The translations under genes and the position numbers were made by a program. The notes under the pieces were generated by a model. The model did not search any database and was not told the origin of the DNA. It worked only from the letters and a program-made list of their open reading frames with translations. DNA of 43,350 nucleotides, taken from the IMG/VR virus record IMGVR_UViG_2703718812_000010; one strand, 5' to 3'. Shown here piece after piece: positions 41,374-42,485 of the stretch. Within the stretch, counting starts at the first letter, position 1. Each line of letters opens with the position of its first letter. This DNA comes from a virus. Lineage: Duplodnaviria; Heunggongvirae; Uroviricota; Caudoviricetes.

Positions 41374-41550
41374 GATCCTACCTTCACTGTATAAAAAGTC
41401 AATAAAATGATCATTTTATGATCGTTTTCACCACCTAACTCTTCGTTTCTTTAAGTAAATAATCACCGCCCTGAATCATTGTTGATGACTTTTAAATCTA
41501 TTTGTTGTATCAATTAAACAAATCGAATCGATCGTTTTTGTCGATCGATT
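41374..41550 (+). promoter_or_regulatory. com-mom control region: GATC cluster plus putative late-activator motif
   Basis: GATC sites at 41374, 41409 and 41420 (three within 50 bp), then CCGCCCTGAA at 41466-41475 (same 10-mer as upstream of I), then two more GATC at 41530 and 41543. Confidence 0.45.
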
Positions 41551-41593
41551 GCATGAGAAAGGCATCAACAACAAAGCAGGAGGTTATGCGGCC

Positions 41594-41794
41594 ATGTATC
41601 GAAACATACGGTGCCGACACTGCAATAAGCTACTGGCACGGGCCAGTTTCAGTTATCTGGAAGTAAAATGTCCGCGCTGTAAAACCCTCAATCAAATCAC
41701 ATCTCCGAGCGCCACAGAGCACCCCACATACACAAGGAAATCCTGTCGTGGGGAACAGAAAGCAAGTCACATCCCGTATCATCAGCACGCCTGA
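41594..41794 (+). CDS. com: Com-like zinc-finger translational activator of mom
   Basis: [35 protein letters not shown]... with the CxxC...CxxC pattern of Mu Com; AGGAGG upstream; its 3' end overlaps the mom start. Confidence 0.7.
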
Positions 41795-42485
41795 ACTTAT
41801 TCGCTATAACGACAATATCGTTGGTTATGGCTCCCGTGAGTTGCGGGTTGAGACAATAAGTTGCTGGCTGGCCAGACTGGTTATCGTCAATAAACATTAC
41901 AGCCACCGTTTCGTAAATAATTCCTACCTTCATCTGGGCATATTTTCAGAACGGGAACTTGTTGGCGTAATGCAATGGGGTTACGCCCTTAACCCAAACA
42001 GTGGTGCACGCGTCGTAACGGGTACGCAGAACCGAGAATATATGGAGCTTAACCGGCTATGGATGCATGACTGTATGCCGAGAAACTCCGAATCAAGGGC
42101 AATCAGTTACGCGCTCAAGCTAATCAGGCAGCTTTATCCGCAGGTACAGTGGGTTCAGTCGTTTGCAGATGAGCGTTGTGGCTGTCTTGGTGTCGTGTAT
42201 CAGGCCAGCAATTTTGATTATGTAGGCAGCCATGAATCAACATTCTATGAACTTGATGGCGAGTGGTATCACGAGATTTGCAGGAATGCCATTAAACGAG
42301 GCGGACAACGAGGTGAACATCTGAGGGCTAATATCGACAGAGCCAGTGTGCATAAGTTCCGACAGTTTCGTTACATCCGGTTTCTGAACAAGAGGGCCAG
42401 AAAACGCCTCAACACAAAGCTATTCAAAGTCCAGCCTTACCCAAAACCACAAACAGTTAAAGCTGGTTTGAAAGAGAGTGAATGA
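41748..42485 (+). CDS. mom: Mom-like DNA modification protein (anti-restriction)
   Basis: 245 aa ORF overlapping com, the last gene before the right end; Mu Mom-like organisation and size. Start codon uncertain. Confidence 0.7.

Follow-up and report, generated by a model that had tools for sequence, protein, structure and literature searches.

We analyzed the com-mom module of a Mu-like prophage in the IMG/VR virus record IMGVR_UViG_2703718812_000010 (Caudoviricetes), whose whole stretch of 43,350 nt is referred to here as the window. The prophage is of the Escherichia coli O157 Sp18 type, a kind described as Sp18 in O157 Sakai (PMC2669165). Its genes follow the order repressor/ner/A/B, gam, gemA, a single Mor/C gene, lys, head and tail genes, gin and com-mom, which places com-mom at the right end of the Mu-like genome, with the prophage ending in ...TGCTTCA at 42622 (Table 1). 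The com-mom region is 100% identical to that of E. coli UTAK-15 and 95–99% identical in ~215 complete E. coli genomes, many of them O157:H7; most of the region is held by 215 of 5,426 complete E. coli genomes (~4%), O157:H7 included. It also resembles a Mu-like element annotated within Stx phages. The mom gene of Mu is a textbook example of methylation-controlled gene expression, and the initial annotation had proposed that its epigenetic and activator control is conserved here.

The two genes overlap as in Mu, as had been stated, and the agreement extends to the structure of the hairpin at the mom start. Com is 47% identical to Mu Com (Pfam Zn_ribbon_Com, E = 2e-12), with the same coding sequence annotated by the Prokaryotic Genome Annotation Pipeline (PGAP) in the identical E. 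coli sequence, and Mom is 79% identical to Mu Mom (Pfam Mom, E = 6e-77). The overlap measures 47 nt compared with 50 nt in Mu, and the GTG that starts mom is aligned with that of Mu at 35907. This codon lies, in both phages, in the 3' arm of a CCCAC/GUGGG hairpin that carries a GGAG-type Shine-Dalgarno sequence in its loop, and the stem is invariant in the window, Mu and the related loci L034 and L036. If its role is carried over from Mu, the hairpin is the target of Com-dependent translational activation, with Com opening the mRNA structure that hides the GUG start codon of mom. Judged by orthology of both proteins, gene overlap and the conserved hairpin around the GUG start, this is a Mu-type com-mom module with a Com-controlled start codon; by its upstream sequence it is also a variant family member that does not match the architecture of Mu Pmom.

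Table 1 Features of the com-mom region and of the late promoters compared with it (window coordinates)
Feature	Position	Strand	Description
Mor/C-family gene (C homolog)	14015–14440	+	Only Mor/C-family gene in the window; Pfam Mor, E = 1e-31; between gemA and lys
lys late promoter (predicted)	14433–14480	+	Box TTTTCTGATATTCCGCAAAGCCTGCC, 16 bp, -10 TACGCT
I late promoter (predicted)	22361–22408	+	Box CTTCCTGAAATCCCGCAAAACCCGCC, 16 bp, -10 TATGCT
56-aa zinc-ribbon open reading frame	41016–41186	-	MDKE..CPxC..GKTYxPK..CPxCSP; Shine-Dalgarno AAGGAG
Intrinsic terminator (predicted by scan)	41293–41329	+	13-pair stem followed by T-run TCCCTTTTAT; ends the upstream rightward operon
Leftward sigma-70-type promoter (promoter scan)	41402 to 41375	-	TTGACT-16 bp-TAGGAT
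Tentative com promoter	41451–41479	+	-35 TTAAGT (41451–41456), 17 bp, -10 AATCAT (41474–41479)
10-mer CCGCCCTGAA	41466–41475	+	Extends from the spacer of the tentative com promoter into the start of its -10
Extended OxyR-consensus-like stretch (~75 bp)	41478–41554	.	Register 41509–41545 is that validated in Mu and agn43
Inverted repeat AATCGATCG-N7-CGATCGATT	41526–41550	.	GATC pair (41530, 41543) with 13-bp spacing; predicted binding site of an OxyR dimer
com	41594–41794	+	66-aa zinc-ribbon translational activator; Shine-Dalgarno AGGAGG at 41578–41583
RNA hairpin CCCCAC..GUGGGG	41722–41753	+	Predicted fold, AAGGA in loop; sequesters the mom start codon
mom	41748–42485	+	GTG start; overlaps com by 47 nt

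The element most likely to carry methylation-sensitive control is an inverted repeat just upstream of com, whose two GATC sites were absent from the initial annotation. It is the only occurrence of GATC-N9-GATC in the window, and its CGATC..GATCGAT pattern is invariant in six lineages (the window, L009, the AF39-like L024, L034, L035 and L036) with flanks that have diverged or been replaced. The window sequence AATCGATCGTTTTTGTCGATCGATTG matches the regulatory region of E. coli K-12 agn43 (TATCGATCGTTTATATCGATCGATAA) at 21 of 26 positions, and the Mu operator matches agn43 at 20 of 26. Mu GATC II and III, AATCGATC-N9-GATCGATT, have the same 13-bp spacing and are preceded by the word ATCAATTAAA, as in the window; the identity with agn43 (flu) runs over TCGATCG-N-TCGATCGAT. 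When GATC positions upstream of com were compared across 80 mom loci from IMG/VR, the conserved group adjoined com in all GATC-bearing types, lying at -109/-91/-78 in the Mu type, -98/-80 in a D108-like type and -64/-51 relative to the com ATG in the window clade.

Similarity to OxyR sites was scored along the window with the published consensus ATAGnTnnnAnCTAT-N7-ATAGnTnnnAnCTAT (maximum score of 20). Only 21 positions scored at least 12; six of these start within 41478–41518, with scores of 14, 12, 13, 13, 13 and 12, and the 14 is the single best score in the window. No composition-matched local shuffle contained six such matches, and the probability of a maximum of at least 14 was 0.017. 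In the register that sets the two GATCs at positions 22 and 35 of the consensus, the score is 13 in each of the window, L009, L024, L034 and Mu, and 14 in agn43. The repeat therefore combines a consensus match with a 13-bp GATC pair placed inside an OxyR half-site, and on these sequence characters it groups with the OxyR/Dam operators of mom, agn43 and gtr. We consider it very likely that an OxyR/Dam-type control element is present at com-mom, so that this part of the proposed conservation holds, and likely that the switch is the conserved pair adjoining com. The parts of that proposal that did not hold are the assignment of control to a triple of GATC sites further upstream and that of activator binding to a shared 10-mer, both discussed below.

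Two observations concern the immediate surroundings of the repeat. The 15-nt segment between it and the com Shine-Dalgarno sequence (41551–41566) is hypervariable among near-identical prophages with identical flanks, taking the forms TGCATGAGAAAGGCA, TGAGTGATAAAGATA, TTGATGAAGCAAACA and TAGGCGAGAAAGATA. A hairpin in the 5' untranslated region with compensatory changes, TGAT(G/A)..(C/T)ATCA at 41550–41567, was considered for this segment and abandoned once L185, L131 and L126 were added. A broad scan of viral contigs for the operator pattern returned mostly chance matches, with a Com-like open reading frame downstream in only 11 distinct matches.

The position of the repeat differs from that in Mu. 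Only 27 bp (41551–41577) separate it from the com Shine-Dalgarno sequence compared with 59 bp in Mu, and its distance to the com ATG is 51–64 bp compared with 78–91 bp. A-11 and T-7 are near-invariant bases of -10 elements, and no hexamer with both is found between 41536 and 41577. Because the 27-bp gap contains no fitting -10-like hexamer, the com -10 must lie upstream of 41536. The 59-bp gap of Mu holds the C site (TTAT-N6-ATAA), the -10 TAAGAT and a 22-nt leader (PMC2582627); the ~44 bp with the C site and -10 of Mu are absent from the window, so the operator cannot sit upstream of the promoter. The Mu Pmom order, in which the GATC/OxyR region lies upstream of the C site, with the C site and -10 between it and com, is thus not found in the window. 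On this sequence evidence, the com operator must overlap or follow the com promoter, which is the only geometry to which we commit.

The com promoter itself could be placed only tentatively. Position-weight scoring of hexamers across six lineages, which was validated by its recovery of the known agn43 promoter, gave several modest candidates, none unambiguous, of which TTAAGT-17-AATCAT is the best supported; GACTTT at 41487 and AAATCT at 41494 are alternative -10 candidates. At the homologous slots, L024 and L009 have TTTAAA-17-TAAATT or TAAAAT (scores of 11–12.6), and the homologous -10 slot reads TATAAT in L034, TAAAAT in L036 and GATCAT in L035.

With the operator predicted over or downstream of its promoter, the arrangement resembles that of agn43 or P22 gtr rather than Mu. 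For agn43, which is repressed by OxyR from this position, the same placement of the operator is supported by the 5' end of K-12 IsrC/flu at GATC I and by TAGAAT 30 bp upstream of GATC II. The OxyR register is the same in both, with a score of 14 in agn43 and 13 in the window; agn43 differs in having three GATCs, and the window operator differs in fronting a phage DNA-modification operon. Another phage-borne system, P22 gtr, has GATC pairs with 13-bp spacing within its OxyR half-sites, and the promoter is overlapped by one of these pairs (PMC2909390). With a TATACT just after its pair, the L034 clade resembles this system. Unlike the window, where a single pair has an OxyR-like context, gtr has two pairs, three half-sites and OxyR as both activator and repressor.

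Taking these results together, we favor a joint reading with a probability of roughly 0.6: the OxyR/Dam operator is the repeat at 41526–41550 with agn43-like geometry, the upstream GATC triple lies on a leftward promoter and the 10-mer recurs by chance. Under this reading, reduced OxyR would bind the repeat while both GATCs are unmethylated, and the bound protein would keep RNA polymerase from the promoter or halt it, in the manner of agn43 or P22 gtr; Dam methylation of both repeat arms would prevent binding. Unlike in Mu, OxyR would not act from upstream of an activator site. The triple would belong to a sigma-70 promoter arranged back to back with com and reading toward a zinc-ribbon gene.

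Several observations weigh against this reading. The window has only two GATCs compared with three in Mu and agn43, its upstream OxyR half-site is weak, and the OxyR consensus is AT-rich, as is the region scored. The best com promoter candidate of the window scores poorly (4.9), and the search with a lys/I late-promoter profile described below yielded no C-type box for com. In addition, a sister clade (L034, L035, L131, L203 and L126) has retained a good TATACT directly after the GATC pair, so promoter–operator geometry may differ between subgroups; this TATACT is invariant in five L034-clade variants and would place the pair at about -36 and -23, as in gtr. Finally, if the tentative com promoter is right, the GATCs at 41409 and 41420 fall at about -77 and -66, a roughly Mu-like position that may give them a role in com control.

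A further-reaching reading, which we regard as improbable, is that the Mu mom switch has been rebuilt into an agn43-type epigenetic switch, with a sigma-70 promoter running into an OxyR/Dam operator and the late activator dispensable. If true, lysogens would carry a modification gene with heritable ON and OFF states, and the prophage would bear a phase-variable cassette for the modification of host DNA. The modification gene would be mom or, in the prophage of E. coli STEC1585, a C-5 cytosine methylase. In that prophage (L004:1886–3092, equivalent to window positions 41594–41760), the upstream region, com and the Com-target hairpin are all kept and, after the GTG and ~4 codons, a C-5 cytosine DNA methylase (PF00145) stands in place of mom. 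The control cassette appears able to move from one DNA-modifying enzyme to another, and if the operator assignment is right the portable unit comprises operator, com and Com-controlled start codon. It would also follow that the placement of the same OxyR/Dam element can change, from upstream, where it counters activation, to promoter-proximal or downstream. Because everything rests on sequence comparison, these points will interest mainly specialists. We found no literature on how mom is regulated in Sp18-like prophages or on GATCs left unmethylated in them.

Among the alternatives, an absence of epigenetic control seems unlikely. Here the repeat would be a relic or the site of another protein, and com-mom would answer only to the late activator and Com. 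The functional side is, for the window phage, deduced from sequence: homology, conservation and geometry are the data, and all regulatory functions, including protein binding, methylation dependence and transcription start sites, are predicted from them. Also consistent with this alternative are the decay of the third GATC and of part of the upstream half-site to TATC and AATC, and a promoter–operator geometry unlike that of Mu. Against it, the repeat is strictly invariant across lineages with diverged or replaced flanks, is retained even where a cytosine methylase replaced mom, and closely matches two experimentally validated OxyR/Dam operators.

The GATC triple had been presented as the OxyR/Dam control region. 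The three sites do exist, at 41374–41377, 41409–41412 and 41420–41423, and form the tightest triple in the window, yet 86% of dinucleotide-preserving window shuffles contain one equally tight. OxyR consensus scores across the triple do not exceed 10 of 20, which is background, and the spacings of 35 and 11 bp differ from the 13 bp of Mu, agn43 and P22 gtr. Conservation is also lacking: the full triple is confined to the Sp18-like subgroup, with two of its sites in L034 and none at equivalent positions in L035, and the cluster is not conserved in L035, L036, L024 or L009. In the L024/AF39 and L009 types the segment is diverged or unrelated, yet com-mom is 96–98% identical. In score, spacing and conservation, the triple thus lacks the properties of an OxyR/Dam operator, and together with its overlap with a leftward promoter these results argue against the proposed role.

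This leftward promoter is conserved as TTGACT-16-TAAGAT in L034 and TTGACG-16-TATAAT in L035. Hexamers and spacing are kept while the spacers are unrelated, the classic footprint of a functional promoter. The GATC at 41374 overlaps its -10, as in L034 but not in L035, and Dam may therefore modulate this promoter instead; the -35 is immediately preceded by an 11-bp tandem ATGATCrTTTT that contains the GATCs at 41409 and 41420. The likely product is the 56-aa zinc-ribbon protein, which has 48% identity in L034 and L035 with both Cys pairs kept. At the same place, PGAP annotates a 154-aa hypothetical protein (41016–41479, minus strand) that is intact in one O157 genome and matches phrog_26524. 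We rejected this longer open reading frame as a gene: a frameshift interrupts it in the window and in three other relatives, neither L034 nor L035 maintains it, it spans the promoter and the terminator, and only its last 56 codons, which have their own Shine-Dalgarno sequence, are conserved. Two further structures lie nearby. An inverted repeat at 41331–41364, ATGTAGTAT..ATACTACAT, sits just past the rightward terminator, within the leader of the leftward promoter, and is conserved, with loops of unrelated sequence, in L034 and L035. At 41404–41428, a GATC is found both in a perfect 14-bp palindrome (AAAATGATCATTTT) and in an 11-bp tandem repeat (ATGATCATTTT/ATGATCGTTTT), and the word GATCGTTTT from this segment recurs in the operator at 41530.

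A bipartite switch, in which both GATC groups cooperate to set methylation states for the divergent leftward and com promoters, is in our judgment quite unlikely. The window has fewer GATCs than expected (140 compared with 172), and the five within 173 bp form its densest quintet; five in the 383-bp spacer is only mildly unusual (p ~0.018). Both groups contain GATC(G/A)TTTT, the two promoters stand back to back ~50 bp apart, and two-group OxyR/Dam systems are known from P22 gtr and Salmonella opvAB (PMC2909390, PMC4856963). However, the upstream group has neither OxyR-consensus similarity nor a pair at 13-bp spacing, the groups are 110 bp apart compared with 51 bp in gtr, and the upstream group is not conserved in the four relatives named above.

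The 10-mer CCGCCCTGAA occurs, as reported initially, both upstream of com and upstream of I; the two exact copies are the only ones in the window, and that at 22382–22391 lies 24–33 bp upstream of the I start codon (22415). An exact 10-mer common to the com and I upstream regions arose in ~4% of shuffles, one between com and any late region in 7% and one between any pair in 11%; ~15% of 10-mers in the com upstream spacer recur elsewhere in the window. Among near-identical prophages the com copy is polymorphic at three positions (CCGCCCTGAA, CCTCCCTGAA, CCTACCTGAA and CCGCTATGAA), and the I copy varies among relatives (CCGCCCTGAA, CTGCCCTGAA, CGGCCCCGAA and CAGCCCCAAA). The copies do not co-vary, with O157 keeping the 10-mer at I and not at com. 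Allowing up to one mismatch, we found it in neither the lys nor the P upstream region, which the suggestion of a shared late motif had named as the result that would count against it. Its recurrence is most likely coincidental. Words overlapping it, such as ATCACCGCCC, are over-represented across the window, probably through codon bias (ATC ACC GCC, read as GGC GGT GAT on the opposite strand), a feature not captured by dinucleotide shuffles; ATCACCGCCC occurs exactly five times, at 9780, 19496 (minus strand), 23566, 26639 and 41462, and 17 times with up to one mismatch compared with 3.8 expected.

A different sequence better fits a late activator site. The lys and I promoters each have a 26-nt box at an identical distance from similar -10 hexamers, and their best 26-nt ungapped match has 20 identities, a number that none of 400 shuffles attained. 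Conservation of the lys box extends to 19 variants with C proteins 83–99% identical, and the -10 region of the lys promoter aligns with Mu Plys (TAGACTGCCATCAGAGAA). In six relatives, the I box core CTGAA.TCCCGCAAAACC.GCCC is invariant while the 10-mer, which overlaps only the variable 3' edge of the box, varies. As in Mu C-type late promoters, there is a -10 without a -35 and an imperfect dyad, here TTyCTG-N6-CGCAAA, centered ~44 bp upstream of the predicted start, compared with a C site at -43.5 in Mu (PMC2582627). The dyad is followed by CCnGCC in the window, whereas in Mu TTAT-N6-ATAA is followed by CC. At the position homologous to Mu PP, located by alignment of the N protein, there is a partial box, AGTCAGGAAACCCTGCC, at 31612. 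Most likely, the late activator recognizes TTyCTGAwrTyCCGCAAAnCCnGCC located 16 bp upstream of TAyGCT at lys and I.

Counting degenerate matches to the box proved too permissive, with 442 positions at 15 or more of 26, and was replaced by an nhmmer profile of 12 lys/I boxes. In the window this profile matched only at 14433 and 22361, and none of 41200–41600 matched even at E up to 1,000. When the regions upstream of lys, I, P and com were searched for the Mu-type C half-site ATAA[CT]C, none lay in a promoter-like position. The window thus lacks the ATAACC half-site of Mu, and both its predicted box and its C protein (39% identical) differ from those of Mu. The lys/I box provides a testable recognition site for this diverged Mor/C-family activator.

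The weakest alternative combines the two proposals of the initial annotation, with the upstream GATCs as the OxyR/Dam control region of the com promoter and CCGCCCTGAA as a C-type activator site at com and I. Placed in the register of the lys/I box, the com copy does have a left arm TTTCT, a flank CCGCC and, at 16-bp spacing, the hexamer GACTTT with A-11 and T-7; it scores 15 of 26, equal to the positional P homolog, and a com start near 41486 would bring two of the upstream GATCs (those at -77 and -66) close to the Mu positions of -87, -69 and -56. But such scores occur at 0.5% of all positions, with ~2 expected in the com upstream spacer, the copy is without the conserved core CCGCAAA, and the invariant G of CCnGCC is a T in the majority O157 variant at com. 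With no profile match for the com copy, no 10-mer at lys or P, no OxyR-like sequence or correct spacing in the GATC cluster and, in the L024/AF39 and L009 types, retention of com-mom and the same C type where cluster and 10-mer are both absent, this alternative is very unlikely.

The protein encoded at 14015–14440, described initially as a Mor/C-family member, is one: it is 39% identical to Mu C and 26% to Mu Mor, and tblastn found no second copy in the window. Since Mu has separate mor and C genes, the regulatory cascade may be two-stage rather than three-stage.

Further observations were made around the I promoter and between gin and com. Within the G-I spacer, a 75-bp block at 22265–22340 is invariant in six relatives, exceeding the flanking genes in conservation. 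The motif GATTTT..AACC.GTATTTAACGG is common to this block and Mu, where it adjoins the annotated gyrase cut site, and the block is a candidate strong gyrase site. The I -10 TATGCT lies in the loop of an invariant inverted repeat, CCGGC..GCCGG (22398–22417), and the predicted transcription start coincides with or adjoins the A of the I start codon, which would make this transcript leaderless or nearly so, compared with a leader of 26 nt in Mu. A scan of 40900–42700 against Rfam gave sub-threshold chance matches only. Whereas gin is directly upstream of com in Mu, ~3 kb of extra genes separate gin (37751–38311) from com in the window prophage, at 38402–40977, and include DUF6645 (685 aa), DUF1378 and DUF826.

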